64,000 nucleotides of DNA. Source: Candidatus Nomurabacteria bacterium (GTDB lineage Bacteria > Patescibacteriota > WWE3 > UBA101185 > UBA10185). The notes beneath the pieces were generated by a model. It made no database searches and was not told the origin of the DNA. It worked only from the letters and a program-made list of their open reading frames with translations. The translations under genes were made by a program, and so were the position numbers. The DNA lies in NCBI GenBank assembly GCA_020631855.1, contig JACKGU010000001.1, positions 231,601 through 295,600 on the forward strand, read 5' to 3'. Of the stretch, positions 14,429 through 50,473 are shown piece by piece; the stretch's first letter is position 1; each line of letters begins with the position of its first letter.

Positions 14429-14469
14429 TTTTGTAGGAAAATTCTTATTTGGTTTGATTTAATTTGTGA

Positions 14470-14604: not shown

Positions 14605-15171
14605 ATGCGACCCATACTGTCTACTGTAAAAAATCGTTTAGCCACATTTTCGTCTGCAAAAAAGACCACAAAAATTCTTTTAATACTTCTAGCGGGCACA
14701 TTTTTAATATTTGGATTTTTATTATTAAGTTCCATGGTTTGCTCTAAAAATAGCTCCTTATTTTGCTCCCGGCTTGCAGTATTATCAAATAATTCGGCTG
14801 ACCAAAAAACAGGGCAAGAACCGAACAACAGTATCTTTTCAAGCCCGGGAATCATTGAAACAGAAACGGGTATTTGGGATGGGCCTAAGTTTATTAGTAG
14901 CGGGGTGACGGGCTCTGAAAGTATTATATATAATGGAAATCTGGCGGCAGCCGATCTATCGAAACCTTCCATGACGCTGACAAAGAATAATGTTTCTACA
15001 GAAATAATTATTGATACAAACACCTTGAATCTTTATTACGCACCACATTCGGACTCGGCAAATCATGAAAACTACCCTATTTCTTCCCTCGAAGATCTCT
15101 TCTTAAAATTGAAAGACGGTGATTTTGTATCATATTTTCCTGGAAAGTTTATAATTGTTCTGTACTATTAA
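14605..15171 (+). CDS. Hypothetical membrane-anchored protein (one N-terminal TM segment)
   Basis: ORF with hydrophobic segment ILLILLAGTFLIFGFLLLSSMV. The first ATG is at 14605 (the track start 14599 is a TTG). Confidence 0.45.
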   Translation: MRPILSTVKNRLATFSSAKKTTKILLILLAGTFLIFGFLLLSSMVCSKNSSLFCSRLAVLSNNSADQKTGQEPNNSIFSSPGIIETETGIWDGPKFISSGVTGSESIIYNGNLAAADLSKPSMTLTKNNVSTEIIIDTNTLNLYYAPHSDSANHENYPISSLEDLFLKLKDGDFVSYFPGKFIIVLYY

Positions 15172-15190
15172 GGCTGCAGGTATTAACAAA

Positions 15191-18100: not shown

Positions 18101-18940
18101 AGAGTTATTGGAGGTATAGTTGTAAGTTTAGGTGATATAGCTAATACAATAACCAATCCTTATGATTCCGCCCTTGCTTTCTTGGCAACTAGACTAAGCC
18201 TTACTAACGTAAATGTCTCAGCTTTTAGCCGCGGTGCTTTTGATGTGACGAATGGCAAAATAGCACAGCCAGATGCTAATGAAGCTTCTAGCCAAAGATA
18301 TTTCAGCAACATGCCGCCTGAGTTAACTTTTTGGGATACATCTTTTAATTTTGATCCCCCTGCTGGCACCCTAGATTCTCCCCTGCCTTCGGGAAATATT
18401 TGGGGACTTACTAAAGACGTATATAAAATTTCTGCGGCCTCATTAAATGGTATTTTGTCTAGTTCTACTGATGTACTGACATATAATGTTGATTCTAAGA
18501 ATTTAGCAATAATATATGTAATTGCAGACAGCCCAACAGATGTGCTCGTAAAGCGAAGACTGAACACAGGAACAGGGAAACTAATGTTTATAGGAAGTGA
18601 GAATGTTAACTTTGTTTTTGACAGTTCGGTTGGAGTTGGGTGCAATACCAATACGGTTAACAGCATATTTAGAGCAGCCATTATTACTCAGGGTAGCGTG
18701 TATTTTAATACTTCTGGAACCAACAACGACAGCTGTATAGTTGTAGATGGACCTCTCATTGCGGGTGTACCTAATGACAATACTACCGGGAGAATATATT
18801 TATTTAGAAACATGAGTGCGGCCCCAACCGGTAATAGAATTCCTACCGAACAGGTTAGATATAATCCGCAGTATATATACTTGACCGACGAGACTACCGG
18901 TATTATGGTCACGGACGTTATTTGGGAGGAGCTCGAATGA
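15191..18940 (+). CDS. Giant (about 1250 aa) secreted Cys/Ser/Thr/Asn-rich protein; candidate pilus-associated adhesin
   Basis: N-terminal hydrophobic signal-anchor (PLAAGALFLATLIFSASSFSIFAQA), more than 60 Cys, a long uninterrupted ORF, and a stop TGA that overlaps the ATG of the downstream PilX-like gene (ATGA). Confidence 0.6.
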   Translation: MYLIKNIFLRLKIKSFITVANPLAAGALFLATLIFSASSFSIFAQACAPDSGEHHTYDEYFVNPRCGLWDFPCIGSQCVVNEGYGNQCNAGIANNCLAKTNQLSEGECTAIGYAFPCYYTNIWPQPPCSTCGSTAAAANPLCGSDEYTPSVCTVAPDAACPTSTVPIPDTDTPVTIEVRGVKNVPRDEGHVYGLMWFNSENSSNAVRVDLERQNDALGNYTGIYRKTFTPCATYGKCYSGTANEMLWFDVWMSNDNIGSDTFYCDDANFWTTPPTASEDPPYASLAIENLTRSLYYSTADAVFINDNERVRVIGQGFSNPSSPDINQMNLRSCSSSQTCLDANSSTTVATSSTGIVETELSFSAGAVIRYLVNARNTTAAGANQWCVGYTDPGSFVKCVRNNLPNPSYKDLITLRINNSPHASLSATDTDTGTNYTNSSFTISQGTTLSFTANASDTYAGGNPGIVTGIYLKKCNDANNCSGLTQVSEVASCTSDSGVSTCSTQPSQYITFNTPGTYKFLVNAADNADPKAWCYSYPNYNYSALDAYKPCKRGSDTLPNVLTITVTAVNQAPTGSIETINCSLGGRVCDTDGDRNIIVVPGNIISFQAVGQDDGGINYTRIAYCETANCASPTTLTSASGAVAFYNRTFFPADIGKSYYFFVTADDNGSPTLSCSGNPSASTYCDRPSNTIDKYTVTVSAAPNALPEGTIQLGTSAPGTIQTLNLGDSGTIVANVTDSDGYINSSQIIYCPSGFNNCSPADGSGLILSTCGVNVSQCSIGYTFNTVGPAYFVVRATDDDSGVCSGQSAAAASRCDRSLPLDEDRLTVNVVNNTGTTESLTGITYNVSDVAACSNITTSPRLTSGAVQESLSVTYINHAGTSYNGNWTDANGNFEISNIPIPENGDLCATGSFTDSVDSRYRYDLVCYSDGTTVQTLNTSSTCASNITLPGSGSNNYFGYVKVDTYQEAWYRVIGGIVVSLGDIANTITNPYDSALAFLATRLSLTNVNVSAFSRGAFDVTNGKIAQPDANEASSQRYFSNMPPELTFWDTSFNFDPPAGTLDSPLPSGNIWGLTKDVYKISAASLNGILSSSTDVLTYNVDSKNLAIIYVIADSPTDVLVKRRLNTGTGKLMFIGSENVNFVFDSSVGVGCNTNTVNSIFRAAIITQGSVYFNTSGTNNDSCIVVDGPLIAGVPNDNTTGRIYLFRNMSAAPTGNRIPTEQVRYNPQYIYLTDETTGIMVTDVIWEELE

Positions 18941-19884
18941 TGTTAAGCACTATCTCTAAAATGAATTACAGAAGAATTAATGAAATAAAATCGGAGGCAG
19001 GCCAGGTTCTATTGTTTGTGGTTGTAACCATGACAGTTGCCCTTGCTTTGGGAGTAGGCGTATCTCTACAAACCATCTCCACTATATCTGATGTTGCGGA
19101 TACAGATACTGCGCAAAGAGTGTTGGCCGCAGCCGAGGGTGGAGGAGAGAGGGCTTTATCTTTGAAACAGACAGATTTAGCAAATTTAGCAAATGCAAAA
19201 AAAGCAAATAACCTTCCAGGGTACCAAAATTTATGTGCCCCAGCTTTTGGAGATTCTGTTACGGGGGAATTTTTGTGCAAGTTGAACTTTACGCCTGCTG
19301 CAGACTCGGGTGATCCTATATTACTTGAATCTCAGATTGGCGTTGAGTACTTTACATTTAATAAGGAAACCCAAGATGGAACACCCTATTACGAATTTGC
19401 ACTTGGACAGAACAAAGTAAAAGAAGTTGTTATGAACGAATCCAAATCAATAGCAGATATAAAGGTGTGTTGGACCGGAGAGGATGGTTTGTTTTATACA
19501 TCGTATAGCAATAGTGCAAATTTTTATAGACAGGACATTATTTGCCCAGTTGTGGGATGTCCTTCAGGAGTGGGTTCGAACGCCATATCTTCTACAGCAA
19601 GCGATATTTCCGGCTTTAATCAATGTGCTACTCTAAGTACCGGTGATTATGGTACTACTCCGAAGGGGCTTCGATTTAGAACTTTAGGAGCCGACACTAG
19701 GGTTGCCGTAGTCACCGCATCGCCCTTTTTTCCTCCCCAGGGTATTAAAATAACGTCTACAGGTCTACTTGCTGTTCCTGGACAGCCCCCGATAAAAAAA
19801 ATAGTTAGAGTTTATAGGTCTTTTGCTTATGCTCCTGCTCCTTTTGACTTTGCGATTTATTCCGAATCTGAATTAAGTAAATAA
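18937..19884 (+). CDS. PilX-N-like minor pilus protein
   Basis: N-terminal GQVLLFVVVTMTVALALGVG resembles the PilX N-terminal domain. RBS GGGAGGA sits 6 nt upstream. The ATG overlaps the stop of the giant gene. Confidence 0.55.
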   Translation: MMLSTISKMNYRRINEIKSEAGQVLLFVVVTMTVALALGVGVSLQTISTISDVADTDTAQRVLAAAEGGGERALSLKQTDLANLANAKKANNLPGYQNLCAPAFGDSVTGEFLCKLNFTPAADSGDPILLESQIGVEYFTFNKETQDGTPYYEFALGQNKVKEVVMNESKSIADIKVCWTGEDGLFYTSYSNSANFYRQDIICPVVGCPSGVGSNAISSTASDISGFNQCATLSTGDYGTTPKGLRFRTLGADTRVAVVTASPFFPPQGIKITSTGLLAVPGQPPIKKIVRVYRSFAYAPAPFDFAIYSESELSK

Positions 19885-20108
19885 ACCTTATAGTATAGCT
19901 ATTTTACTATTTAAAAAATTTAATTTCTAAATAAGCCCACCCGCTTGACACTCCCCCGCTATTTGATGCATACTTACTGTATGAGTTTTCTGCCCAACAC
20001 CTTTCTCTCACTCTTCTATAATTTGTTTAATAAAAGAGTTTCTGTTTTAACAATCACCTCACGGCATACAAGATTTATTAGATTTTATCTTGGAGGGAGG
20101 TGTAAGAT

Positions 20109-20543
20109 ATGAAAAACATTAAAAATAATTCAAAAGGTTTTACACTTATTGAGCTCTTGATAGTCATCGTTATTATTGGTATCTTGGCAGGTATTGTGCT
20201 CACGGTTTTAAATCCAGCAAGACAACAACAGCGAGCAAGAGAAACAGTTTTGAGAGCTAATACAGAAAAAGTGTGTCTCGCACTTCATTCGTGTGCGGTA
20301 ACAAGCTCCTCAGCTTTAAACTGTGATGATTGGACCGATATAGGTGCTATAAATCCGACCGGTACGCCTACAGGCTCAACTTATCCAATAAGCCCTAGCC
20401 CTGCGACAGCCGCTGGTGACACAATAACAATTACAGGCACTCTAGGTTCCTGTGTATTTACTTGTAATTACAACTTTACTAACTCAACGGCTGGTCAATT
20501 AGCCCTTGGCACGGGCGCTACTTGCCTCATTGGAGTTCAGTAG
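20109..20543 (+). CDS. Type IV pilin/pseudopilin (prepilin N-terminus KG|FTLIELLIVIVIIGILAG)
   Basis: Class III signal peptide. Strong RBS GGAGGGAGG. Confidence 0.8.
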   Translation: MKNIKNNSKGFTLIELLIVIVIIGILAGIVLTVLNPARQQQRARETVLRANTEKVCLALHSCAVTSSSALNCDDWTDIGAINPTGTPTGSTYPISPSPATAAGDTITITGTLGSCVFTCNYNFTNSTAGQLALGTGATCLIGVQ

Positions 20544-20559
20544 TTTTTCAGTGAATTCT

Positions 20560-20592
20560 ATGCCCCTTCTCCAGAAGGGGCATTTTCTTTTT
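20560..20592 (+). terminator. Rho-independent terminator (ATGCCCCTT-CTCCAG-AAGGGGCAT followed by TTTCTTTTT)
   Basis: 9-bp stem plus T-rich tail, 17 nt after the pilin stop codon. Confidence 0.6.
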
Positions 20593-20665
20593 CTGAACAC
20601 CTTAAAAAATGTTGTATATTTGTATCGTTCAGAAAGTGTGTTAACATTTATATAGTAAACTGCCT

Positions 20666-21205
20666 ATGTATAAAATAAAAAAAATTTCACAATCAAAAAA
20701 TAAAGGCTTTACGTTAATAGAGTTGCTCATTGTAGTTTCTGTATTGGGCATATTGGGAGGAGTTTTAACCACAGTTATAAACCCTAAAGTACAAAGAGCT
20801 AAAGCTCAGGATTCTGTTTATGCAACAAATATTCAAAAGCTTGCAGAGGGCATTGAGGCATATTACATTACCGGAAATGGCGTAGCGTATCCGGCTGAGG
20901 ACCCTTCGGGATCTTTAAGTAACGTAATAGCAGACCCGAATAATAACTTATCAAAATACATCGCAACATGGCCGACGGATGCTGCTTATGAATATAGAGT
21001 TTCCAGTGATTCCACAAACGCTTGCTTAAGCGTGCCTATGGCATCAGATCCCGATGTTCGCATAAAGTATGTTTTTAAGTCTTCGACCTCTGGAGCTTGT
21101 TCTGGAAGAGTTGTTAGAGATTGTACGTACAGTTGTTATGAGGGTTCAAGTTTCAATACCAACCTTGATGGTTGTAATTCTTTGACCGGAAATGCCTGTA
21201 ATTAA
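20666..21205 (+). CDS. Type IV pilin/pseudopilin (NKG|FTLIELLIVVSVLGILGG)
   Basis: Class III signal peptide. Confidence 0.8.
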   Translation: MYKIKKISQSKNKGFTLIELLIVVSVLGILGGVLTTVINPKVQRAKAQDSVYATNIQKLAEGIEAYYITGNGVAYPAEDPSGSLSNVIADPNNNLSKYIATWPTDAAYEYRVSSDSTNACLSVPMASDPDVRIKYVFKSSTSGACSGRVVRDCTYSCYEGSSFNTNLDGCNSLTGNACN

Positions 21206-21225
21206 TTTAATGGGTTTTTTACATT

Positions 21226-21723
21226 ATGTATAACAAAAGAAACAAAAATTTAAATCCCGGTTCAGGATTTACATTAATAGAGATTCTGATAGTAGTCGTG
21301 ATAATTACGGTCATTAGCGGAGCAATTTTATCTTTAATAAACTCCGAAGGCTTAAGAGGCAAATCTCGTGATGCTCAGAGAGTTGCTGATATTAAAAAAA
21401 CTCAAAGTGCTTTGGAACTATATTTTGCTGACAACAGGCAGTACCCTGATACATCTTCAGATAAATCTGAGCTGGCGGATATAAGCAGTTTTCTGAGCAG
21501 CTACATGAGTGTAACTCCTACGGACCCCTTAAATACTGGGCAAGTTGACAACCTGTGTGGCAACAGCGCGGTCTATAAATATGTCTATCAATCTGATGGT
21601 TCAGAGTATTATTTAGGAGTTAATATGGAGGATAGTAGGTCAGCCGAGCCTTCCCCTTGTACGGACTTTAGCCTTTTTTGTAACTCTGCCGAAGCAACCT
21701 GTTATGCGGTTCGTAATCCTTAA
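21226..21723 (+). CDS. GspG/PulG-like pseudopilin
   Basis: GSG|FTLIEILIVVVII...RDAQRVADIKKTQSALELYFADNRQYP matches the GspG core motif. Confidence 0.8.
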   Translation: MYNKRNKNLNPGSGFTLIEILIVVVIITVISGAILSLINSEGLRGKSRDAQRVADIKKTQSALELYFADNRQYPDTSSDKSELADISSFLSSYMSVTPTDPLNTGQVDNLCGNSAVYKYVYQSDGSEYYLGVNMEDSRSAEPSPCTDFSLFCNSAEATCYAVRNP

Positions 21724-21725
21724 AG

Positions 21726-22208
21726 ATGCAAACTAGAAGTTCATCCGGCTTAACTTTAATTGAATTAACTATTACTCTTGGCATTATTGTTATTCTAGCT
21801 TCTGTTTTGCTATTGGTAATGGAAATACCCGAACTTGAGCAAAAAGCAAGAGATAATAAGAGACTTAGTGACATTGCTACTATAGAGCGGATAATAAACG
21901 AGTATGCAAATAACGCTAAAAGCTTTCCGGGCATTGCGAATACAACTTACGCAAGCAATGTAATACCTGATGAAGAAGAAGGCCAGGATATCTTGGTGTC
22001 GGGGTGGATATACGCCGATTTCACGCTATACTCCCCTACTCTACCCATTGATCCTAAAAACACAGATAACCACGTTTATTCTTATAGACATAATGGTAAG
22101 GCTTACGAAATAAACGCGTCTTTAGAATACTTTGACAACTTAATGCAAGAAGACAACGGAGACGACCCCGCTCTATATGAGGTGGGTACAAATTTGAGTA
22201 TTTTGTGA
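21726..22208 (+). CDS. Pilin-like protein with atypical leader (SSG|LTLIELTITLGIIVIL)
   Basis: Prepilin-like N-terminus with Leu at +1. Confidence 0.65.
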   Translation: MQTRSSSGLTLIELTITLGIIVILASVLLLVMEIPELEQKARDNKRLSDIATIERIINEYANNAKSFPGIANTTYASNVIPDEEEGQDILVSGWIYADFTLYSPTLPIDPKNTDNHVYSYRHNGKAYEINASLEYFDNLMQEDNGDDPALYEVGTNLSIL

Positions 22209-22238
22209 GATTTATTAAAAGTCTGTATACTTAAATAA

Positions 22239-22769
22239 ATGAAAAGATATACTGCTCAATCAGGCTTTACGCTTATAGAAATGATGATGGTTATTGCCAT
22301 TATGGCAATACTTTCTGGGTTTCTACTTCCCGGTTTGGGGAAATATTTAGACTCTCAATCTCTGTTTCAAGCTCAAGACCAAGTTAAAGGAGATTTACGC
22401 TCTATTCAAACCAGAGCTCTCACCGGAGCCGGTTTTAATGGCACGTATAAGTATTGGGGTGTAATGTTTGTTAACGACCAAAATAAATATGAATATTTTT
22501 TATCGGCTTCAAACAATGACACTACTTGCACTAATGCGGATTTTGACACCCAAGGTACCAGTCAGAGACTACCGGGAAACATGAAAATAGTAAAAACCGA
22601 TTCCGGGGCAGCATCTAATTGTTACTATTTTGCATTTGATAGCGGAAACGCAAATTTTGCCTCTGGGGCTGGTAATATATACATTGGTAACGGGACAAGT
22701 TGCGTCAAAATTACTATAAATTCTGCTGGATTTATTACAGCAGATAGATCTATTGTTGCTTGTAATTAA
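22239..22769 (+). CDS. Pseudopilin (GspH/FimT-like; QSG|FTLIEMMMVIAIMAIL)
   Basis: Class III signal peptide. Confidence 0.75.
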   Translation: MKRYTAQSGFTLIEMMMVIAIMAILSGFLLPGLGKYLDSQSLFQAQDQVKGDLRSIQTRALTGAGFNGTYKYWGVMFVNDQNKYEYFLSASNNDTTCTNADFDTQGTSQRLPGNMKIVKTDSGAASNCYYFAFDSGNANFASGAGNIYIGNGTSCVKITINSAGFITADRSIVACN

Positions 22770-22819
22770 GTTTTGCATCTTAGTATTGCAGTTGAATGCC
22801 GGTATTTAAGGCTACTTAT

Positions 22820-23386
22820 ATGCTATTAAAAGTTAAAAAATTTGTTCAAAATATATATTGGAGGCAAAATCGCCATTTCACAAATTCTCCGCAAGCCGGA
22901 CTGGGGCTTATTGAGACTGTTGTTGCTATGGGAATGTCAGTTTTGGTTATAACCACCCTAGTGTCCTTGTCGGTTTTTACCTTGCGTTCTTCGGTTCGCA
23001 GCAATATGTTTTTACGAGCTTCCAAATTAGCAAACAAACAAATGGAGCTGGTTAGAGCATATAGAGATCAGTCTGCTCTATCCTGGGAACAATTTTTAGT
23101 TACATTAGATGATTGTGACGGTGCAGGACAATTTTGCTTTATGGATGACAATGTTGTTGTTCAGGGTGACAAGTATCGAGACGGCACAGCCCTTAATTTA
23201 GTGACTGTGTATTTTAATATAATTGATCCGGCCAACGATCATCCAAACGATAGCCCTCCAGATGTTGATCCGGAAGATCCCGTTATTAGAGTTTCTGTTA
23301 TAGCTTCTTGGAGCGATATTGCGGGGGGCTCTGCCGATAAAAGTGTTTATGTATATACCGATTTATCTAATTGGCAGAATAAATAA
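22820..23386 (+). CDS. Minor pilin-like protein (AG|LGLIETVVAMGMSVLVITTL)
   Basis: Prepilin-like hydrophobic N-terminus with Glu+5. The start was chosen at an internal Met, so the 5' end is uncertain. Confidence 0.55.
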   Translation: MLLKVKKFVQNIYWRQNRHFTNSPQAGLGLIETVVAMGMSVLVITTLVSLSVFTLRSSVRSNMFLRASKLANKQMELVRAYRDQSALSWEQFLVTLDDCDGAGQFCFMDDNVVVQGDKYRDGTALNLVTVYFNIIDPANDHPNDSPPDVDPEDPVIRVSVIASWSDIAGGSADKSVYVYTDLSNWQNK

Positions 23387-23986
23387 ATGATTTTTGCGAA
23401 TACTAAATATTTACATAGAGTCAAGCCGGTCTGTAAAAGAAAGGATCGGGACGAACAGAAAGGATTTACTTTGCTCGAGTTACTCATTGTCATTGCTCTG
23501 TTGACAATTACTGTTGGGGTCACGGGTGACATAATTTTATCTTTGGTAAGAAGCTACAGTAAAACAAGGGTAACAAATGAGGTTGAACAAACAGGAAATC
23601 TGGCAATGTCTAAGATTGAAAAAGAGTTTCGCGCTGCCCTCTCAGTTTCCTCCCCTGCGCTAGGGGATACTGGAGATGAGCTAAGTTTTATTAGGGTAAT
23701 AGATGGAGTAGAACACACAATTACCTATACAGTAGAAGTTACCGGCGGGCTACTTAGGAGAGAAGACATAAACGGGACAAATATTTCCACTGCTGCAATA
23801 ATTGATGGGGAGGAATCGGCAATTAAAAACCCGGATACCGCTTTTAGCCTAGTCCAGGAAAATCCTTATGTTGTAAAAATAAATTTTGAGCTTAGACAGG
23901 GAGACTCAACACTTCCTGAGACAAGTCCTTTCGCGTCGAAAATTGATCTAGAAACAACTGTAGTAGCCAGAGGATCTTATAGATAG
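23387..23986 (+). CDS. Pseudopilin (GspJ/PilW-like; QKG|FTLLELLIVIALLTI)
   Basis: Class III signal peptide after a 26-aa leader. Confidence 0.7.
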   Translation: MIFANTKYLHRVKPVCKRKDRDEQKGFTLLELLIVIALLTITVGVTGDIILSLVRSYSKTRVTNEVEQTGNLAMSKIEKEFRAALSVSSPALGDTGDELSFIRVIDGVEHTITYTVEVTGGLLRREDINGTNISTAAIIDGEESAIKNPDTAFSLVQENPYVVKINFELRQGDSTLPETSPFASKIDLETTVVARGSYR

Positions 23987-23997
23987 GTAGACTATTT

Positions 23998-24873
23998 ATG
24001 TTTATTTTATTAAGTAAGTTTTGTTCCGGAAGGGTTAAAAATAAATTAAATACCTTCGCAGACGACCATCCCTATTCAGAAAGCGGCCAGGTCTTGGTAA
24101 TAATGGTTTTTGTTATGGTCATTGCTCTTGCTCTGGGCGTATCGATGTCAAACAAGTTCTTATCCGGGACTAGAAATATTACAAACGCTACCCTTGGCTT
24201 GCGGGCACAGGGAGTTGCAGAAGCCGGAATAGAGAACATTTTATTAAAAACAAATGACGAGCTTTACGACTATATTCAATACAACAGCTGCGGGGACAGC
24301 TGTATTGTCTCTTGGACAAACGCCGACGGACTAGTTGAAACAGCTACAATAACGCTAAGCACTCTAGGTAGTTCTTCTGATGCTTATATTTTTCAAATAT
24401 CTCAGAACGAAGTAGAGGAGATAAATTTAAACGGTTACCCCGAGGATACTTCGCTGACTCTTTGCTGGGATGATGATTTTTCTGAGTACACTAGTGTCTA
24501 TGCTGAACTGCTGTCCGGCACTGTTGGTAGTTATACTCTTACACCCCTTGCTTATAACTCCATAAATTATGGCGGAAACAGCAATGGGTTTGACTCTGCC
24601 TCGAGCCAGTTAGGGTATGATAGCTGTTTTGATGTAAATTCAGGCTCCGATCCTTTATCATTAAGAATTCGTATTTTTGGTTCAGATGCAACCATCGCAA
24701 TAATACCCTCTTCTTCTACAGACCTTCCTGCCCAGGGAGTGCTAATTGAATCGGTCGGTGAGGTAGCAGGAACTTATAAGAAAGTTGCAGTAATAAGAAA
24801 AGACGCTTTCATGGGCCCGGAATTTAGCTATGTGCTTTTTTCAACTTCTGAAAACAGCCCGTTGTCTAATTGA
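23998..24873 (+). CDS. Second PilX-N-like minor pilus protein
   Basis: GQVLVIMVFVMVIALALGVSMS N-terminal segment, similar to the 18937-19884 protein. Confidence 0.55.
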   Translation: MFILLSKFCSGRVKNKLNTFADDHPYSESGQVLVIMVFVMVIALALGVSMSNKFLSGTRNITNATLGLRAQGVAEAGIENILLKTNDELYDYIQYNSCGDSCIVSWTNADGLVETATITLSTLGSSSDAYIFQISQNEVEEINLNGYPEDTSLTLCWDDDFSEYTSVYAELLSGTVGSYTLTPLAYNSINYGGNSNGFDSASSQLGYDSCFDVNSGSDPLSLRIRIFGSDATIAIIPSSSTDLPAQGVLIESVGEVAGTYKKVAVIRKDAFMGPEFSYVLFSTSENSPLSN

Positions 24874-24916
24874 TTTAGGAGTAGAATATTTTTTAAATAT
24901 TCTGTAGACTTATATT

Positions 24917-25969
24917 ATGCCCATTATAGGACTTGATCTGGGCCGCCATCAATTTAGGGCGGTAGAATTAGAACAACAAAAAGGTTTTTATATTCTTAAA
25001 AACTACGGTAACTATGAAGGCAGGATGCTCGATTTGGATTTTCGTTCTCCTGACGCTGTCGCAAACTATACCAACGCACTCAAAGAGTTCATTCGAGAGA
25101 GAGATTTTTCAACATCAGGAGTTATCGTAGCATTGCCTGAGCAAGAGGTCTTTATACGGGTCATTAGTACTCCCAAGCTTTCACAAAAAGAGTTAAATAA
25201 TTTTATAAAAATGAATGCTGAGGAATACATTCCTATCCCGATGTCTGAGGTAACTTTTGACGCTCAAATAATAGACTCTAACGAAGTTGTGGATAAAGAA
25301 GATTCCGAAACCGGTAAAACAATGAGCGCCTTGTTAGTGGCTTCAAAAAACGATATCCTAAAAAAATACGTCGAGCTTATAAAATCCGCAGGATTCGTCC
25401 CCAAAGGCATAGAACCAGAAACCTTGTCGATAGAGAGAGTATTAGGGGATACCTTGGATCGTCCAAGCGCGTGCATTATTGTGAATATTGGAGTTTTTTC
25501 TACTCAAATAATAGTTAGTTATAGAGGTTTTGTTCGCTTCACTCGAACCGTGTCGGTAGGCGGAAGCGACCTGACTAAAGCTGTTCAGAAAGCTCTGAAT
25601 TTAGAATTCAATCAGGCAGAAGAATATAAAAAAGCTTACGGTTTAGACGAGAGCCAGGTTGACGGCAAGGTTTACAATGCTATTAAGCCCGTATTTGACA
25701 ATATTCTACTTGAAATAAACAGATCTAAAATGTACTACACAACGCACAATCCTTCTGTTATCATTAACAGAGTAATACTTTCCGGAGGAACTGCCCTTAT
25801 GCCGGGTACACTGCTTTATATTGCAAATAAACTTGATGTTGAAGCCGAGCTTTCCAATCCCTGGAGAACTATAAAAATTTCCGAAAAATTACAAAAAGAT
25901 CGCGATAACCTAATTAAACAAGGGCCAATGTATTCAACAGCGGTTGGACTAGCCCTAAAGGAGGTGTAA
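24917..25969 (+). CDS. pilM: Type IV pilus assembly protein PilM (actin-like)
   Basis: IIGLDLG N-terminal phosphate-1 motif; 350 aa. Confidence 0.8.
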   Translation: MPIIGLDLGRHQFRAVELEQQKGFYILKNYGNYEGRMLDLDFRSPDAVANYTNALKEFIRERDFSTSGVIVALPEQEVFIRVISTPKLSQKELNNFIKMNAEEYIPIPMSEVTFDAQIIDSNEVVDKEDSETGKTMSALLVASKNDILKKYVELIKSAGFVPKGIEPETLSIERVLGDTLDRPSACIIVNIGVFSTQIIVSYRGFVRFTRTVSVGGSDLTKAVQKALNLEFNQAEEYKKAYGLDESQVDGKVYNAIKPVFDNILLEINRSKMYYTTHNPSVIINRVILSGGTALMPGTLLYIANKLDVEAELSNPWRTIKISEKLQKDRDNLIKQGPMYSTAVGLALKEV

Positions 25970-25974
25970 CTGCC

Positions 25975-26565
25975 ATGTCACAAAGTATAAATCTAATTCC
26001 ACAAGAAGAGGTAGTCTCTCAGCAAAAACAGAGTGTTGTTAAGCTGAGCTCTGTATTTTCTGTTGTATTACTTGTTTTAGTGGCTATATACGCTGTGTAT
26101 ATGGTTTACACCGTAAATCAAATTAAAAGTGCAACCAGACAGCATGAACAAAATATCGCTAATCACAGAAAAGACATAAATTCCCTAAAAGAAATAGAGA
26201 TTCTAGCCCGTTCGCTTGACGGCAGATATAAGTTGCTATCGGAGGTTTTGGATAAGAGGCAGAATTATTCTATTTTGCTTGAGGAAATAACCAAGAGAAT
26301 GCCCGTAACTACAAGAATTGATTCTTGGAACATTTCAGCACCCGGGACAGTTATGATTTCAGGAGTAGCAGACGATTACCTTGCTATTGCAAAGCTTTTG
26401 GATAATATGTCTCAGAAAGATTTTGTTGATGCAGGAGAAGGTATGGAGTCTTTGTTGACTGACATTACGTTAAACTCGGTTCAATTAGATAATCAGGACA
26501 CCGATGTTAGTTTTGCTCTCACTGTAAAATACGATTCTAAATTAATTTCGGGAGTGAGAAAATAA
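25975..26565 (+). CDS. pilN: PilN-like bitopic protein
   Basis: N-terminal INLIPQEE (INLLP motif), a single TM segment, then a coiled-coil. Confidence 0.65.
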   Translation: MSQSINLIPQEEVVSQQKQSVVKLSSVFSVVLLVLVAIYAVYMVYTVNQIKSATRQHEQNIANHRKDINSLKEIEILARSLDGRYKLLSEVLDKRQNYSILLEEITKRMPVTTRIDSWNISAPGTVMISGVADDYLAIAKLLDNMSQKDFVDAGEGMESLLTDITLNSVQLDNQDTDVSFALTVKYDSKLISGVRK

Positions 26566-26566
26566 T

Positions 26567-27397
26567 ATGAAAAAAATTAACATAGATACCTTAGCGATAA
26601 AACAAATGGTGGCAAACTTTTTAGTGCCTCTGATTTCTTTAGGCCTTGTAACCGCAATAGGATTTTTAGTACTCTATCCTACTATCTCGAATAGACCTAT
26701 GTACGAAGAAAAGCTAGAGGCTTCAAGGGCATTAGATGAGCAGTTATTAACGAAGCTCGAGAAATTAAATTATCTTGTGGACTATAAGAGTGCCGTAGAT
26801 GAGAATAACTCTCTACTTTCGGATGTTTTAGCTCAAAAGCCTTTAGTTCCCGAACTTCTGACCCAGCTTGATATTATTGCAAAAGAAGCGGGCTTGGGCG
26901 TTGAAAAATTAAGTTACTCTTTTGGAGCCGGCAAAGATACCGCCGAAGGCACCTTAACAGATATAAATGTCAATATGGGGATTATTGGAACTTACGATCA
27001 ACTTGTTGCTTTTTTTAGAGCTTTAGAAAAAGCCGGACGGCTGGTTAACGTAGATAACTACAGGTACACCCTTACCGAAGATAATGCTTTGTCTATAAAT
27101 CTTACTTTTTCTTCCCCTTACGTTGATGTGAAAACCGATGCAGTTACTGATGATCCTATTGCTTTTGACATTTCTGACACTAAGTTTGTGTCGTTAATGT
27201 CATCTCTTAAAGAATTTAAGGTTTACAGAATATCTGTAGATGACTACATAGAAGTTCCTGCAACACCAGAAATTCCGACACAGCAGGGTGAGCAGCCTTT
27301 AGATGCTCCGGCAGAAGTCGGAGTACTTCAACAGCCCGGTGGTGCCGAAGCTCCGGCTCAAGTACCTGTCGTTCCGACCGAAGAGCCCCTTAACTAG
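26567..27397 (+). CDS. pilO: PilO-like bitopic protein
   Basis: Single TM segment, coiled-coil, Pro/Glu-rich C-terminal tail. Position after pilM/pilN. Confidence 0.6.
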   Translation: MKKINIDTLAIKQMVANFLVPLISLGLVTAIGFLVLYPTISNRPMYEEKLEASRALDEQLLTKLEKLNYLVDYKSAVDENNSLLSDVLAQKPLVPELLTQLDIIAKEAGLGVEKLSYSFGAGKDTAEGTLTDINVNMGIIGTYDQLVAFFRALEKAGRLVNVDNYRYTLTEDNALSINLTFSSPYVDVKTDAVTDDPIAFDISDTKFVSLMSSLKEFKVYRISVDDYIEVPATPEIPTQQGEQPLDAPAEVGVLQQPGGAEAPAQVPVVPTEEPLN

Positions 27398-38564: not shown

Positions 38565-38665
38565 TGAGTAATTATAGCATTATGCAAAGATATTTCGCAT
38601 AACCAAATCTGTATCAAATACCTACAATTAAGGAGCTTTGTTCATAAATGTTATAATTACCTGAT

Positions 38666-41404: not shown

Positions 41405-42376
41405 TTAGTTCGTATCCACCGCAGGTCTAAAAATAGGTTTTGGTCCTAACGTTCTTACTTGTAAATCTTCTTGGCCTATTGGAGATTGTAACGCTTTCGC
41501 AATGGCCTCTGATATAACATCTCCAACCGTTTCTTTGCCGTTTCTGCCGTCACTACCTGTGTCAGTTGTGTATGGTTTAGCCGGTCCGAAGATTTGCAAA
41601 ATGCGGTTTGCTGTTTTTCCCGCCGTATCCGCAATAGCAAATTGACGCCATGTATCACTTTCTCCATGTAGTAAAGTACCAATCTCCTCATTACCATCTA
41701 TGATCGCTAAGAGCTGAAGCAATGTGTCGAGTTCATTCCTTGCTATTACCCGAGTTTGAGGCTTTGCCAAGGAATCCTTTTCATCTTCTGGTAAAATTCC
41801 AAGTGAGAGTATTAGAAAAATTGCTTCCTCTTCCGTCATTTCTTTTTCCATCATTGTTGCTGCTTTATAAAAGTTAGCAACTCTACGTTTTATATCAGCA
41901 GGGTTTGCTATTACCCCACCCTCCATCGATCCTAACTGTAGCAAACCTTCGAGCACTCCGCTAGCTGTCTCTATAGCTATTAGCCTACTTTCATGAGCAC
42001 TTCTCGCCCCTTGTTGTCGGGTTGCCCTTAACCTTTCCTCCGCATTTTGAAACTCAAGAAATCCTGCAGAATTGAGGATTTCCAGAGCATCGACTGGGGA
42101 AAGTGATTCGGTGAAAGCACCCGAATGTCCTACTTTCTGGGCGTTATTAGTCTCTAGTTTCAGCGCCTTTCCGCAGGTATCGTACAACTGAAATAAAGTA
42201 GCTTTACGTTGATTTCGTTTACTCCAGTAATTAGGACTTCCTATCTTCTCTTCCCCCTCGATGTTCTCAGTTGTTACTGCGGCCAGATCATCACTTAGTC
42301 TATGTGCATCTTCCGCAAGCTGCTTCACGGTTTCCGTACCTGGTTCTGTTTGTAATTGCAAATGGGGTTTTCTCAT
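41405..42376 (-). CDS. Hypothetical protein (323 aa), GC-rich islet
   Basis: Long ORF, elevated GC, no recognisable motifs. Confidence 0.5.
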   Translation of the reverse strand: MRKPHLQLQTEPGTETVKQLAEDAHRLSDDLAAVTTENIEGEEKIGSPNYWSKRNQRKATLFQLYDTCGKALKLETNNAQKVGHSGAFTESLSPVDALEILNSAGFLEFQNAEERLRATRQQGARSAHESRLIAIETASGVLEGLLQLGSMEGGVIANPADIKRRVANFYKAATMMEKEMTEEEAIFLILSLGILPEDEKDSLAKPQTRVIARNELDTLLQLLAIIDGNEEIGTLLHGESDTWRQFAIADTAGKTANRILQIFGPAKPYTTDTGSDGRNGKETVGDVISEAIAKALQSPIGQEDLQVRTLGPKPIFRPAVDTN

Positions 42377-44537: not shown

Positions 44538-45586
44538 AGGTATGCCAGCTTGCCTCCATATAAAGTACGCAAATCGCTAACGCCAAATTTTTGCATTACC
44601 AGTCTATCTAATCCCATTCCAAAAGCGAAGCCTGTATAAATTTCAGGGTCTATTCCACACATTTTTAGTGTGTTATAGTGAATCATCCCTGAACCTAAAG
44701 CCTCGATCCACCCACGATATTTACAGACATCGCAACCTTCCCCACCACAAAACTTACATTGCATATCTACTCCCACCCCCGGCGAAACCTCGGGGTAATA
44801 TTTGTACCTGAACCTAACCTTTGTGTCTTCACCGTAGAGGTATTTATGAGCCTGCTCCAGCGTACTCATTAGATGTTGTATAGTGATTCCCTTGTCGACC
44901 ACAAAACCTTGATATTGGTTAAAGTACGCTCCATTTGTCGAACTTAGGGTTTCGTTTCGGAAACATTTCCCCGGAACAACTACTCTAATAGGAGGTTCGT
45001 AGTTTGTTAAAATTCTTGCTTCCACAGACGAGGTGTGTGTTCTTAAGACTATGTCCATTTCATCTCCGAGCTGTTGTATAAAAAGGGTGTCTTGCAAATC
45101 TGTGGCAGGGTGGCCTTCGGGTAAATTAAGCTTTCTAAAATTGAACAGTGCAGTTTCTATTTCAGGCCCCTCGGCTACTGAGAATCCGCTATACCTAAAA
45201 AATTCATTTAGCTGTCGGATGACCTGAGTTGTAGGGTGCAAAAAGCCTGCATTAGTAGCTTTTTCAGGCAATGTTAAATCAAGCAAAGGGTCGTTAAGGC
45301 TTTCCTCTGCGAGTAAATTCTTTTTATCATTTATTTTGTTTTTCTGTTCTTCTATAAGAGTATTTATTTTCGGTCCATATAGCTTTTTTTCTTCAGAAGA
45401 TAGAGAAGGGATTTTTTTAACTAACATTGTAGTCAGCCCCGCTGACTTTGATAGATATTTAAGGTAGACTTCGTTAATTTTTGCCTCTGAGGTTGCAGTT
45501 TCCAAATCAAGCTCAAATTGTTTTTGTATTTCTGTTATGTTTTGCTGCATCTTTACTATAGTATGACAGAAAGGCTTATCTGGCAA
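44534..45586 (-). CDS. pheS: Phenylalanyl-tRNA synthetase alpha subunit
   Basis: Class II motifs (FRNE...), C-terminal GWIEALGSGMIH. 4-bp overlap with pheT. Confidence 0.85.
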   Translation of the reverse strand: MPDKPFCHTIVKMQQNITEIQKQFELDLETATSEAKINEVYLKYLSKSAGLTTMLVKKIPSLSSEEKKLYGPKINTLIEEQKNKINDKKNLLAEESLNDPLLDLTLPEKATNAGFLHPTTQVIRQLNEFFRYSGFSVAEGPEIETALFNFRKLNLPEGHPATDLQDTLFIQQLGDEMDIVLRTHTSSVEARILTNYEPPIRVVVPGKCFRNETLSSTNGAYFNQYQGFVVDKGITIQHLMSTLEQAHKYLYGEDTKVRFRYKYYPEVSPGVGVDMQCKFCGGEGCDVCKYRGWIEALGSGMIHYNTLKMCGIDPEIYTGFAFGMGLDRLVMQKFGVSDLRTLYGGKLAYL

Positions 45587-46170
45587 TATTCACATAAGGT
45601 CTTCTTAGATTAATTTCAATTGTTTAATTTTTATTATGATTGGCCTTTTGTCGGGTAAAATTAGCAAACATAGTGAATCCTCTACCATTAAGCTAAAATA
45701 TAGGTGAAATAAATATTATGGTTAGTACCTTGCGCAGAGAGAATTTAATGCCTCAGAGACTGATGGTGGCATAAGTTTTCATTACGAATCGATAGAGCTA
45801 TTCTGTAATGGATTAAGCCTAGATGCAAGCGAACCTCTTCCTGTACCTAGCCCGTGTGCTGGAATACACGCGTGTCTAGATGTTGCAGTAAATGGTTCTG
45901 TTTCAGTGACTTCGGTATGCGAAAGGAGCTGCTCCTTTTATATTCGGGGGGGGGTGGTTCTCCCCGGTTATGAAGCAAAGCTCTGAGCAAGGGCAGTTAA
46001 AAAGAACATTGTGTTTATCGGAATAAGGTTTTTTGGTTCTAGTTACACCTATAGTTATAAAGACGCTGGGGGATCAGAAGGTTATAGATACGATAAAGGG
46101 TAGTTTTTTGATGCTGATATAGCTCTCGCGCAAAATACTCAAGATCTTTATAGAGATAGAAATAGGAGAC

Positions 46171-46200
46171 GGGCTTTAGGTCGCGAAGCCCTATTTATTT
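46171..46200 (+). terminator. Candidate intrinsic terminator (GGGCTT-TAGGTCGCG-AAGCCC followed by TATTTATTT) inside the long pheS/PP2C intergenic region
   Basis: 6-bp GC stem plus a T-rich tail. No annotated plus-strand gene lies upstream of it. Confidence 0.3.
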
Positions 46201-46311
46201 GAGGAAATAATAAGTAAAAACACTAGATTTCTGAAATTTGATGCTTGCTTCCGCCTCTTTTTTATTGGAGAATAAAGATTATGTATTTCTTTGTGATTAA
46301 ATATCAAGAAA

Positions 46312-47286
46312 ATGATTAAGAGGGTGGGTCGCCAAGGTGAGCCCGTGGAGCGACAAGCTAATGAGGCGCTAAAAATTCTAGGTATTACGCGCCTAGTTGA
46401 GCCAAAAGATCCGCGAGTGCCCTCGGGTGATGCTGTTGTCGTGTCTAAGCGAATAGGGGCCTTCTGTGTCATCGACGGAGTTGGCGGAAGCGTAAATGGC
46501 CCGGAAGTTAAAGGTGACAGTCGGGCTGCAGGTATAGTAGCACGCGCAGTAGAGAAAAGAATTGAAGATGTTTCCCGTCCTATTGATAGTACAAAGCTCG
46601 CCGTTGAATTTCTGCTAGGTCTTCAAAGTGATGCTAAGTCTGAGTTAGAAGCTGTGGGCAGATACGAACGTCATTCTGCAGAAAAATATATTGGCGCTAC
46701 CCTAACCGCAGTTCTAGTCGGTAAAGTCAAAATTGCTGTGTTAAATGTAGGAGACTGTCGTGCAGTATACTTTCCAAGGAAAGGCAAAACTTACGAGCCA
46801 CCAAAGCATCTAACTCTTGATGATACACGTTTAGTTCAGATTTTGGCTGCGCGAGAGGGCGCAGAAAGGGAGTTGTTGTTAAAGCAGCAAAAAGCTATGG
46901 CAGCTATGGAAGACCCCTCATTGTATACGATTCCAGGAAATACCCTACCCATTGGCATGGATACTTTCTTGCGAACGACGGCCGAAGTTACTAATATGGT
47001 GTCGTCGTTCGCAAGCACTGGGTCTGTAGAAGGGAATGTGGAGATATACGATAGGAGCGATTTGGGGCCAGGTTTATTGCTCCTTATGAGCGATGGGACT
47101 CATGAGGTCTGTTCGGACCCTGCTCTGCTGAGGGTCCTTAATGGATTAAAGCCTCGCCAGAATCCTGCAGAAGCAGTAAGAGACCTAGTTATAGCAGAAA
47201 GGAATCGTTTAGGTCAAGGTCGTTGTAGATACAAGATCGACGATGCCAGTAATATATGTGTGACGCTAGGACAGCCCAAGTTGTGA
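46312..47286 (+). CDS. PP2C/PPM-family Ser/Thr protein phosphatase (apparently catalytic)
   Basis: VIDGVGGSVNG, GATLTAVLV...VLNVGDCRAVYF, LLLLMSDGTHEV and DDASNICVTL match the PPM metal-binding motifs. About 52% GC. Confidence 0.65.
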   Translation: MIKRVGRQGEPVERQANEALKILGITRLVEPKDPRVPSGDAVVVSKRIGAFCVIDGVGGSVNGPEVKGDSRAAGIVARAVEKRIEDVSRPIDSTKLAVEFLLGLQSDAKSELEAVGRYERHSAEKYIGATLTAVLVGKVKIAVLNVGDCRAVYFPRKGKTYEPPKHLTLDDTRLVQILAAREGAERELLLKQQKAMAAMEDPSLYTIPGNTLPIGMDTFLRTTAEVTNMVSSFASTGSVEGNVEIYDRSDLGPGLLLLMSDGTHEVCSDPALLRVLNGLKPRQNPAEAVRDLVIAERNRLGQGRCRYKIDDASNICVTLGQPKL

Positions 47287-47525
47287 ATGTCATGTTTGCA
47301 TAGTTAAAAGGTCTCTTATATAACTTTATACTGCCAAATATCTTCCATGGGCGGCAACCGTAGTAAAAGTCCCAAGGCAATAAATGATGATCTTAGATAC
47401 AACTGTGCGTTTGAATCTTTCGTGCGTTCCTTCATTCTTTATTACCCATCCTGTTTTTTTTGACGAACATAAAGTTCTATGGTAACTTTTTGTTAATATT
47501 TTTTTGTTACCAATAAATTACAGAT

Positions 47526-48365
47526 ATGCCTCACGAACAAACTGATACAGAGCATCCAGAAATGGGAGAATTTCGTATAAAACATTTTAATGATCAAGAA
47601 ATTCTGGATACTGTCTGTGTTGAGGGTGTGTGCAGCGCCCTTAAGGGTCCCGGCACTGCAGTTGAGCAGTTTGCTCTACCCGCCGAGGCAGTGGGGTTAG
47701 TATTGGTACATGCTCGTAGTACACACGGTCATGGCCCAAGAGATATGGAAGCTGATCCTACAACTGCGGCTGCGCGCCAAGCTTCAGAAATTTTTAAAGA
47801 GCATCTTGTACAGCACTTAGCAAGGCGGCCGCAGTATGGTAATGATTACGATGCACTTTTAGCTTCTTACCAAGCTATTGAACCTGCTTTATTACCTCGG
47901 GGTGATAATCTTGCAATTTCGGTAGCCTGTTTGTTAGTGCGGCAAGAAGGCGTGGCATTTTCTAATCTTGGAGATACCCGTGTGTACATGGTTAACCCAA
48001 AAACCGGCACAGCGCGTTCTCTAACTTTAGATACTCCTGCCACGGCGCATCGAAGAGAATACGATAAAGCACAAGCTTTTAGAGATCAAGATGGGGCACG
48101 AATTCTAGTTGATGGGCCGAGAAATCCACGATCTGGCTTTGTGGGTAATAGTAATTTTCCTCCAGCCATTGAAGTTAGTAACCGAGGCTTTCTCGGACTT
48201 AATGAAGCATGGTTAGTAGTCACTACCCGGGAAATTAATAGTTGTTTAACTGCGCTCGATCTTGCTCAATTAAGTGGTGCACTCAATCAACCTGTTCTTT
48301 TCCAAAGGGACGTATTGAATAGGGTTCAAAAAGGTGCTGTGGCTGTTATTGCTTTAGGACACTAA
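47526..48365 (+). CDS. Divergent PP2C-like protein with degenerate metal-binding motifs (possible pseudophosphatase)
   Basis: Keeps AISVACLLV...FSNLGDTRVYMV (GDSR-like). The DGxGG, SDG and DN-T motifs are replaced (LVHARSTHGHG, TTREI, GAVAVIAL). Confidence 0.5.
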   Translation: MPHEQTDTEHPEMGEFRIKHFNDQEILDTVCVEGVCSALKGPGTAVEQFALPAEAVGLVLVHARSTHGHGPRDMEADPTTAAARQASEIFKEHLVQHLARRPQYGNDYDALLASYQAIEPALLPRGDNLAISVACLLVRQEGVAFSNLGDTRVYMVNPKTGTARSLTLDTPATAHRREYDKAQAFRDQDGARILVDGPRNPRSGFVGNSNFPPAIEVSNRGFLGLNEAWLVVTTREINSCLTALDLAQLSGALNQPVLFQRDVLNRVQKGAVAVIALGH

Positions 48366-49672: not shown

Positions 49673-49752
49673 TCGTTAAACGAACCAAAATTACCATAAC
49701 AATGGGTGTTTGGTCAAATAATTCCTTGTTAGTTAGGGTTGGTTTTGGGAGA

Positions 49753-49833
49753 GGGGGGGGGGGGGGGCGGGGGGGGGCGGGGGGGGCCCGCCCCCCGCCC
49801 CCCCCCCCCCGCCCCCCCCCCCCCCCCCCCCCC
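49753..49833. repeat. About 81-bp homopolymeric tract: about 34 nt of poly-G immediately followed by about 47 nt of poly-C (a perfect G-run/C-run inverted repeat)
   Basis: Read directly from the sequence. It is extremely atypical for this AT-rich genome. The track ORFs encoding poly-Gly/poly-Pro here are artefacts. Confidence 0.9.
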
Positions 49834-49867
49834 GACCGGATCTCAAAAGACCCGGCCTCAGGATTCT

Positions 49868-50473
49868 TTACTCCCCAATCGAATTAAACTCAAAGTCAAA
49901 AATACCGACAGCCCCCTGCTTTGTATCGGACACGGTACCGGTAGAAAACCTTACAACCAGTCCCTTTACTGCCCCCGCGTCAATACTTCCTAAACTAAAT
50001 CCCTGTGTCTTCCACTTTACAATCGTATCTCTACCATAAGATACTCCGAGCTCAGTCTCATCAGCTGTCCCATCTGAGTTAGCGTCATTCCACTCTATTA
50101 TCTCAACGTATATTAGCTGCCTAAGCTCATCGGGATCATTGGCTGTGAGATAGTCGGAATTAGTAGTTACTGTGACTCTGGAACTGCCGTTGTTATACAA
50201 CTTCACTAAATAGTCCGCAGTCCAGTTAGACGAAATATTACTAAAAGACGGCCCTTGTATCTCATCTGCCAAATTTGCGCCATCCGCACCTAAAGACAGG
50301 TCCCTCAACAGCTTTAGATCAGCACTGCCTACACTAAAAGTAGAGCCAAGCACTTGCCCTTTGTCGACAAAAGCAGCATAAGCAACACCCGCAAAAGAGC
50401 AAAGCAATAACACGAGAACCAACACACCCGCACTTGCATGCATTTTTTTATTTATTTTTTTAAACATTTTCAC
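49868..50473 (-). CDS. Secreted protein with SipW-cognate (TasA/camelysin-type) signal peptide
   Basis: N-terminus ...AGVLVLVLLLCSFAGVAYAAFVDKGQVLGSTFSVGSADLKL matches the AAFxD...xTFxxGxLDL pattern. Confidence 0.5.
   Translation of the reverse strand: MKMFKKINKKMHASAGVLVLVLLLCSFAGVAYAAFVDKGQVLGSTFSVGSADLKLLRDLSLGADGANLADEIQGPSFSNISSNWTADYLVKLYNNGSSRVTVTTNSDYLTANDPDELRQLIYVEIIEWNDANSDGTADETELGVSYGRDTIVKWKTQGFSLGSIDAGAVKGLVVRFSTGTVSDTKQGAVGIFDFEFNSIGE

Follow-up and report, generated by a model that had tools for sequence, protein, structure and literature searches.

An accessory insert in a WWE3 genome encodes a putative, highly diverged PP2C phosphatase and an orphan neighbour with one PP2C-like segment

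The insert and the PP2C-type protein P1

We analysed a 64 kb stretch of contig JACKGU010000001.1 from Candidatus Nomurabacteria bacterium (positions 231,601 to 295,600 of the forward strand; WWE3, Patescibacteria), hereafter called the window, and focused on a 2.9 kb insert between pheS and rplT that carries two genes, P1 and P2. The two open reading frames (ORFs) lie on the same strand, exactly where an initial annotation had placed them, and on the strand opposite to that of the flanking genes. On the evidence of its motifs and of a predicted fold, P1 is an extremely diverged and apparently catalytic member of the bacterial PPM/PP2C (protein phosphatase 2C) family, and P2 is an orphan with a single stretch that resembles PP2C. 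We lean towards interpreting the pair as an insert that is private to one WWE3 species and in which an active-type PP2C is accompanied by a degenerate paralogue. As it stands, the locus holds an ordinary divergent PP2C and an uncharacterised neighbour, both of which already bear PP2C names in GenBank. The features are listed in Table 1.

Table 1. Features of the pheS–rplT insert and of its two genes (positions in the window)
Feature	Position	Strand	Basis or remark
Accessory insert with P1 and P2	45587–48467 (2.9 kb)	opposite to flanks	between pheS and rplT
Non-coding left part of the insert	45587–46311 (725 nt)		between pheS (minus strand) and P1
P1, 324 aa, putative diverged PPM/PP2C Ser/Thr phosphatase	46312–47286	+	intact motif set
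P1 motif 1, Asp D40	46429–46431	+	SGDA opposite NQDA; alignment with P0004
P1 motif 2, D55-G-V-G-G59	46474–46488	+	alignment with P0004, regular-expression scan
P1 variant G56R in DGxGG	46477 G>A	+	contigs L001, L046, L047, L050
P1 GDCR (147–150), central hairpin motif	46750–46761	+	alignment with P0004, own profile
P1 variant R150H in GDxR	46760 G>A	+	contigs L046, L047, L050
Perfect 13-bp inverted repeat, 22-nt loop	46968–47015	+	inside the region coding for the P1 flap
P1 motif 8, S260-D261-G262 (LLLLMSDG)	47089–47097	+	alignment, own profile, regular-expression scan
P1 nonsense variant Q283*	47158 C>T (codon 47158–47160)	+	contigs L048, L052; 282-aa cluster member P0007
P1 motif 11, D310-D311	47239–47244	+	opposite DN of canonical PP2Cs; alignment, regular-expression scan
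P1–P2 spacer	47287–47525 (239 nt)		AT-rich, 32.6% GC
P2, 279 aa, orphan, putative degenerate PP2C paralogue	47526–48365	+	no DGxGG, SDG or DN
P2 His-rich stretch, H62-A-R-S-T-H-G-H-G70	47709–47735	+	site of variant G70C
P2 PP2C-like segment, residues 129–169 (LAISVACLLVRQEGVAFSNLGDTRVYMVNPKTGTARSLTLD)	47910–48032	+	sole PP2C resemblance

P1 scored 31 bits against the Pfam model PP2C_2 (PF13672; gathering cutoff 24, E = 2.3e-7), with a match that covered residues 50–162 only. It reached 17.3 bits against PF00481, below the cutoff of 20.3, and E = 8.7e-8 against the NCBIfam Stp1 model, and its NCBI name is 'protein phosphatase 2C domain-containing protein'. A word-indexed search for homologues returned one remote relative at E ≤ 10, the standard PP2C P0004, and a stricter search of the same kind returned only P1 itself. 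No relative was found in the GTDB species genomes, a search of metagenome contigs with the P1 alignment recovered four ordinary high-GC PP2Cs only, and comparison with PHROGs gave a weak match to phrog_5650, a family of unknown function.

Alignment of P1 with P0004 placed all canonical motifs in register, including R35, upstream of D40, which aligned to the conserved Arg. The motifs named in the initial annotation, DGVGG (55–59), GDCR, SDG (260–262) and a terminal motif of the DN type, were thus recovered; the last of these reads DD-A-S (310–313) and is directly preceded by a five-residue insertion, CRYKI. Against a PP2C profile that we built from six sequences (tPphA, P0004 and four metagenome proteins), the whole of P1 scored 55.7 bits, and its N-terminal, middle and C-terminal thirds scored 25.1, 22.4 and 16.2 bits, respectively, values that none of 3000 shuffles reached.

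Structural prediction was consistent with this assignment. The AlphaFold2 (AF2) model of P1, built from a two-sequence alignment of which one member was a PP2C, had a predicted local distance difference test score (pLDDT) of 58 and a predicted template modelling (TM) score of 0.60, with core blocks at pLDDT 72–85. It displayed the PPM beta-sandwich fold and gave 123 Foldseek matches at E ≤ 0.001; the top matches in the PDB were tPphA, Stp1 and PstP (E ~ 1e-8, target-normalised TM scores 0.59–0.72). The protein is also extended by about 20 residues at its N-terminus, and its helical flap, at approximately residues 165–240, is enlarged by about 45 extra residues of predicted helix. The inverted repeat within the flap-coding region folds as RNA at −29.4 kcal/mol (z = −3.8) and is unique within the window; it may have been left by a palindromic insertion that made the flap longer, or it may serve as a regulatory hairpin within the gene.

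The claim that P1 is apparently catalytic was therefore borne out by a score above the Pfam gathering cutoff, by the alignment of the metal-ligand motifs and by a predicted fold of the bacterial PP2C type. P1 would be a cytoplasmic, metal-dependent Ser/Thr phosphatase in which D40, D55-G56, D261 and D310 align with the ligands of the binuclear metal centre, as does D148 with the Asp of the GDxR hairpin, and it would dephosphorylate phospho-Ser/Thr proteins that are phosphorylated by a kinase encoded elsewhere. Among the window ORFs of at least 120 aa, no Pfam domain of the kinase, FHA, STAS or anti-sigma type was detected, in agreement with the initial annotation as regards kinases, STAS proteins and anti-sigma factors, and a partner-switching module (STAS plus an anti-sigma factor of the HATPase type) was absent from these ORFs. 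No Ser/Thr kinase gene is adjacent, the flanking genes being pheS and rplT.

Another proposal of the initial annotation was that the two proteins could form a secreted effector pair that mimics eukaryote-type PP2C; such a pair would act on a host cell. Host-attached lifestyles are assumed for many Patescibacteria, the group to which WWE3 belongs, and the window contains a type IV pilus cluster. However, no hydrophobic N-terminal signal or transmembrane segment was found in P1 or P2, the structures nearest to P1 were bacterial PP2Cs, ahead of eukaryotic ones, and the pilus cluster lies about 19 kb away and is unlinked to the two genes. We therefore set this proposal aside as very improbable.

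The orphan P2 and its PP2C-like segment

An exhaustive phmmer search of 1.84e9 representative proteins with P2 returned only P2 itself and one spurious multi-stretch match; a word-indexed search returned only itself, and neither PADLOC nor PHROGs gave a match. A regular-expression scan found no DGxGG, [ST]DG or D[ND][AIVL][TS] anywhere in the sequence; the only related dipeptides, none of them collinear, were DG (189 and 196) and DN (127). The central GDTR (149–152; 47970–47981) was retained, so the motif inventory of P2 was as first annotated. Because DGxGG, SDG and DN are missing, P2 cannot form the canonical metal centre and is not a canonical PPM enzyme.

Every similarity of P2 that we found in the libraries fell in its central segment and pointed to PP2C. 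Residues 128–169 matched the NCBIfam Stp1 model around the GDSR hairpin at E = 0.22 (11 bits, cutoff 230), and the central segment matched seven Stp1 chains in the PDB at E ~ 0.7, both of which are chance-level values library-wide. Against our own PP2C profile, the whole of P2 scored 8.3 bits (E = 8e-5 as a single comparison, 0 of 2000 shuffles), and the central segment alone scored 14.1 bits, which none of 3000 shuffles reached; hhalign gave P = 0.005 for the segment. When 489 real ORFs of at least 150 aa from the window and 36 WWE3 loci were ranked against the profile, P2 came second after P1, with 8.2 bits versus 3.4 bits for the best of the 487 unrelated, non-PP2C ORFs.

Next to this, direct comparison of the two neighbours gave no significant full-length similarity (100 of 1000 shuffles were as good), and their N- and C-terminal parts compared at chance level. 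The best local alignment was the central segment, which was collinear in the two proteins (1 of 2000 shuffles); G147-R150 of P1 stood opposite G149-R152 of P2 at near-identical numbering, and LTLD was common to both. The predicted order of secondary structure in P2 paralleled that of P1, at low confidence, with two long helices, strands, a helix, strands, helices and a final strand. An identical protein is named 'protein phosphatase 2C family protein' by NCBI, which is independent but unverifiable support. Taken with the sequence evidence for the segment, these data suggest that P2 probably descends from PP2C.

The initial annotation had further assigned replacements to the lost motifs, namely LVHARSTHGHG for DGxGG, TTREI for SDG and GAVAVIAL for DNiT. 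These proved to be positional guesses: no alignment statistic outside residues 129–169 backs the placement of H62–G70 opposite DGxGG or that of the other motifs. The spacing is plausible, with 44 residues after TTR in P2 versus 45 after SDG in tPphA; an alternative, equally unsupported alignment puts E33-G34 of P2 opposite the D-G of P1. It is conceivable on such grounds that P2 is active through non-canonical ligands, for example E33-G34, H62/H67/H69, D150 or D196-G197, given that the non-significant alignment sets VEGVCSALKGP opposite IDGVGGSVNGP of P1 and that P2 has two DG dipeptides, an HGH and the retained Asp of GDxR. However, none of these placements is statistically supported, and D196-G197 lies 27 residues past LTLD, versus about 60 in PP2Cs, so that this reading of the alignment would delete a core strand. 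To our knowledge, no PPM works without the motif-2 Asp, and we consider an active P2 improbable.

Our preferred interpretation is that P2 most likely arose long ago as a tandem paralogue of a PP2C, of which only the central beta-hairpin would still be recognisable, and that P2, if functional, would have a non-catalytic role, for example as a binding partner or decoy; any activity of the two proteins and any interaction between them are matters of inference. Several observations weigh against the pairing of an active-type P1 with a degenerate paralogue. On the side of P2, the Pfam models PP2C, PP2C_2 and SpoIIE missed the protein at E ≤ 10, whether it was searched whole or as three segments, and the best Pfam match of the central segment was the unrelated DUF7125 (E = 0.06). 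In regional tests with hidden Markov models (HMMs) of the segments and with a semi-global alignment to our own profile, the N-terminal part was non-significant and the C-terminal part had no match, and the semi-global score of the real sequence was equalled in 86 of 150 trials in which its N- and C-terminal parts alone were shuffled. The single-sequence AF2 model of P2 was unusable (pLDDT 34), and Foldseek found nothing with it at E < 1. On the side of P1, the homologue search was word-indexed rather than exhaustive, Ser60 follows DGVGG where many PP2Cs carry His, the model is only moderately confident and its input alignment included a PP2C, and the disruptive natural alleles described below could mean that it is already decaying.

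DUF7125 was rejected as an identity for P2: real PP2Cs do not match this family, and we found no mention of it in the literature searched.

Two of the checks proposed with the initial annotation, alignment to PPM HMMs and structure prediction, divided the pair, in that P1 exceeded the PF13672 cutoff and was predicted to adopt a PP2C fold, and P2 matched no Pfam model and yielded no interpretable structure. Likewise, the description of P2 as a dead PP2C stood as regards the missing motif set, whereas its PP2C descent depends on one 40-residue segment.

A serious, though less probable, alternative is that P2 is an unrelated, lineage-specific orphan with a coincidental hairpin resemblance, in which case there would be no active/inactive pair. 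The failure of the curated PP2C models, the chance-level E-values of 0.22 and ~0.7, the lack of signal outside residues 129–169, the non-significant full-length comparison with P1 and the accumulation of unrelated genes at the rplT/pheS junction of other WWE3 genomes all fit this alternative. It accounts less well for the fact that, when only the hypothesis raised by the neighbouring gene was tested, the segment beat all 2000–3000 shuffles and all 487 other ORFs, for the alignment of the segment with the equivalent segment of P1 at nearly matching residue numbers, and for the PP2C family name given by NCBI.

Insertion site and natural variants

We compared the window with related WWE3 genomes, whose PheS proteins are 57–67% identical over full-length matches, a similarity that assigns the window to WWE3. 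Besides pheST and rplT-rpmI-infC, the window contains a ribosomal protein operon and a type IV pilus cluster. The gene order infC-rpmI-rplT-pheS-pheT is common to 36 WWE3 genomes, with a penicillin-binding protein (PBP) gene on the opposite strand, and the spacing between rplT and pheS is usually about 50–70 nt. None of the 36 genomes has a PP2C at the rplT/pheS junction, and none was found in about 600 kb of related loci, which agrees with the earlier description of an islet. About ten relatives (loci L003–L038) carry unrelated inserts of 0.5–2.6 kb at the same junction; their products include large membrane proteins and an ABC transporter, and the insert of L025 has small Cys-rich ORFs. Because the inserts in relatives are unrelated and no PP2C occurs there, the junction is a variable spot and the P1/P2 cargo is species-private; the insert would be accessory and confined to one species of WWE3. 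The gap between pheT and the PBP gene is likewise variable among WWE3 genomes, and both sites look like recurrent integration spots within a conserved cluster of essential genes. The insert is not similar to any other part of the window or to what the relatives carry at this junction, and no flanking direct or inverted repeats that would mark a mobile element were found around it.

The GC (guanine plus cytosine) content was 47.7% for P1 and 45.4% for P2, lower than the approximately 52% first given for both, versus 39.4% for the window. At codon position 1 (GC1), it was 0.60 for P1 and 0.64 for P2, and at position 3 (GC3), 0.39 and 0.29, respectively. The excess was confined to codon positions 1 and 2 and thus reflects the Ala/Gly/Arg/Val-rich composition of the two proteins; GC3 was within the range of the neighbouring housekeeping genes. 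Both genes showed the coding-type pattern GC1 > GC2 > GC3, which supports real coding frames. Recent transfer from a high-GC donor was considered and is unlikely because GC3 is host-like. The strength of the Shine-Dalgarno sequence did not discriminate for either gene, as such sequences are lacking genome-wide.

In the non-coding left part of the insert, which has no counterpart in related WWE3 genomes with abutting rplT and pheS, the longest ORF has at most 47 aa, apart from a 93-aa antisense ORF (46191–46472) that overlaps the start of P1. This part has a GC-rich core at 45800–46000, a G9 run whose length differs between assemblies (an extra G at 45946 in contigs L048 and L049) and, upstream of P1, a terminator-like hairpin at 46171–46191 (+). 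It contained no tRNA and no Rfam family, its fold z-scores were weak (−1.4 on the plus and −2.1 on the minus strand), and it may represent a small RNA or a gene that has died. The spacer between P1 and P2 has a promoter-like site at 47304–47332 (+); given its length of 239 nt, P1 and P2 are therefore not translationally coupled.

The exact P2 protein was present on 18 contigs from several samples, and we compared 12 contigs, two of them short, that were 99.93–100% identical to the window and of which 11 covered all of P1. The 12.2 kb shared by the long contigs contained ten variants in total: four in P1, two in an orphan gene at 41405–42376, one in the PBP gene and three in intergenic sequence. 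No variant occurred in tyrS, pheT, pheS, rplT, rpmI or infC, and no synonymous change occurred anywhere in the 12.2 kb. P1 makes up 8% of the region yet holds 4 of the 10 variants (binomial P = 0.006), and its substitutions were in approximately 14-fold excess over a crude neutral proxy that consists of a single event (Poisson P = 2e-4). These population variants are new here, with four protein-altering P1 alleles in 12 kb that are otherwise almost invariant.

The four P1 variants were G56R, which was the commonest, R150H, L273P and the nonsense variant Q283*, through which the C-terminal 42 residues and with them the motif-11 Asp are lost. Variant alleles were carried by 8 of the 11 contigs that cover P1. 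In nature, P1 is thus represented by at least five alleles, and four of these have a probably damaging change. Clustering at 90% identity gave six P1 sequences (the five alleles and one 130-aa fragment) and two distinct P2 sequences. P2 has a single known variant, G70C (47733 G>T), the eleventh overall, which was seen on the short contig L002 only; the invariance of P2 is partly a selection artefact, as the contigs were retrieved by exact P2 identity. G70C falls in HARSTHGHG, which the initial annotation had placed opposite DGxGG, and G56R in the DGxGG of P1; as each is a single event, the parallel may be a coincidence.

The orphan gene at 41405–42376 (minus strand, 323 aa) separates pheT from the PBP gene, two genes that are almost contiguous in several relatives. 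Its product had no Pfam, NCBIfam, PADLOC or PHROG match and is Ala/Leu/Glu/Gly-rich, resembling P1 and P2 in composition. Its population variants were A167T and a 1-nt deletion, and its database copies are truncated or split (260 aa; 183 + 100 aa). For P1, P2 and this orphan alike, PADLOC gave no match even at E ≤ 10, and viral contigs, phage records and plasmids contained nothing.

As regards the regulatory decoy pair suggested in the initial annotation, the alleles with a stop codon or motif substitutions imply that P1, its supposedly active member, is dispensable or under pressure to change. The P1/P2 module is not essential, and P1 is either drifting or selected for change or loss. Drift would be expected if the whole islet were decaying cargo, with P1, P2 and the 41405–42376 orphan as unselected remnants of an old acquisition. 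Consistent with decay, P1 has four protein-altering variants including a stop, the orphan has one missense variant and one frameshift, close relatives are lacking for both P1 and P2, and the 12 kb show no synonymous change, with one variant in 8 kb of adjacent housekeeping genes. However, most contigs carry the two ORFs at full length, 18 contigs share one and the same P2 with G70C as the only variant elsewhere, the coding-type GC1 > GC2 > GC3 pattern is kept with host-like GC3, and a P1 excess of approximately 14-fold over the proxy is better explained by selection, whether for change or for loss, than by drift, bearing in mind that the proxy is a single event. We regard decay of the whole islet as rather unlikely. 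It is doubtful, too, that P1 and P2 form a fast-evolving, species-private module of an active PPM phosphatase and a non-catalytic partner of PPM origin, in which the repeated, independent and disruptive P1 alleles of a nearly clonal population arose by selection to switch off or retune the phosphatase rather than by decay; were this so, a conflict with a host or phage, for example, might lie behind them, and P2 would rank among the most degenerate PPM pseudoenzymes known in bacteria. The pattern of alleles is a modest but tangible lead as to which accessory signalling genes these organisms can gain, tune and discard.

Elsewhere in the window, an 80-nt tract of poly-G followed by poly-C lies just past infC (49752–49834). 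At this place, other assemblies of the organism read G8-CCTCCGCGG-TAT-CCGCGGAGG-C6, a long GC hairpin, followed by tandem GCCAACAATCCCCC repeats and thrS, and several contigs end at the poly-G/poly-C point. These differences and contig ends make the join of the window at about 49.8 kb suspect, and an assembly chimera or a rearrangement probably accounts for the connection there to a 201-aa ORF (49868–50473), radC and the ribosomal operon. The type IV pilus cluster (8576–27397) has at least seven pilin-like genes with N-methylation motifs and includes proteins of 1261 aa (15155–18940, +) and 320 aa (18922–19884, +) with no Pfam match. Almost all genes of the window lack a Shine-Dalgarno sequence, and a TATAAT-like box lies just 6–10 nt before the ATG of tyrS, the PBP gene, pheS and secY (e.g., 38565–38590, 38640–38665 and 45551–45575), which suggests that mRNAs of this organism are leaderless or have a very short leader.

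Comparison with known systems

In its predicted fold, P1 resembles tPphA of Thermosynechococcus, Stp1 of S. aureus and S. agalactiae and PstP of M. tuberculosis, and its motifs follow the order of bacterial PP2Cs (R..D, DGxGG, GDxR, SDG and D[ND]). It differs from these proteins in that the structure-based identity is just 15–20%, the Pfam match is limited to the N-terminal half, the flap has about 45 more residues, the His after DGxGG is replaced by Ser and the DN of motif 11 by DD, and the N-terminus is extended. In the stp1-stk1 operon of S. aureus and the pstP-pknB operon of M. tuberculosis, the kinase gene is adjacent to that of the phosphatase, unlike the arrangement around P1.

Human TAB1 is a PPM pseudophosphatase. 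Among related cases, E. coli RssB has been described as a pseudophosphatase that lacks some of the Mn2+-binding aspartates (PMC6546054), and so has PHLPP2 as a pseudophosphatase (PMC12002173). If P2 has a PPM fold, it would resemble the C-terminal domain of RssB in lacking catalytic Asp residues and in having a non-catalytic role. RssB, TAB1 and PHLPP2 have demonstrable PPM folds that profiles detect, whereas the PPM fold of P2 is putative and its resemblance to PP2C is limited to 40 residues; moreover, RssB carries a fused receiver domain, and P2 is free-standing beside a PP2C gene. If its PPM origin were confirmed, P2 would add a free-standing bacterial protein to this short list and would show how far a PP2C sequence can drift in the fast-evolving, reduced genomes of Patescibacteria.

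The layout of P1 and P2 has a counterpart in the metagenome contig L040, in which two PP2C genes lie adjacent on the same strand (120–983 and 988–1776). The two copies on L040 score 345 and 147 bits against our own profile and are separated by a few bases, whereas P2 scores 8 bits and lies 239 nt downstream of P1. L040 is of high GC content, and its second PP2C gene has DGMGD rather than DGMGG. Tandem PP2C pairs thus occur in other bacteria.

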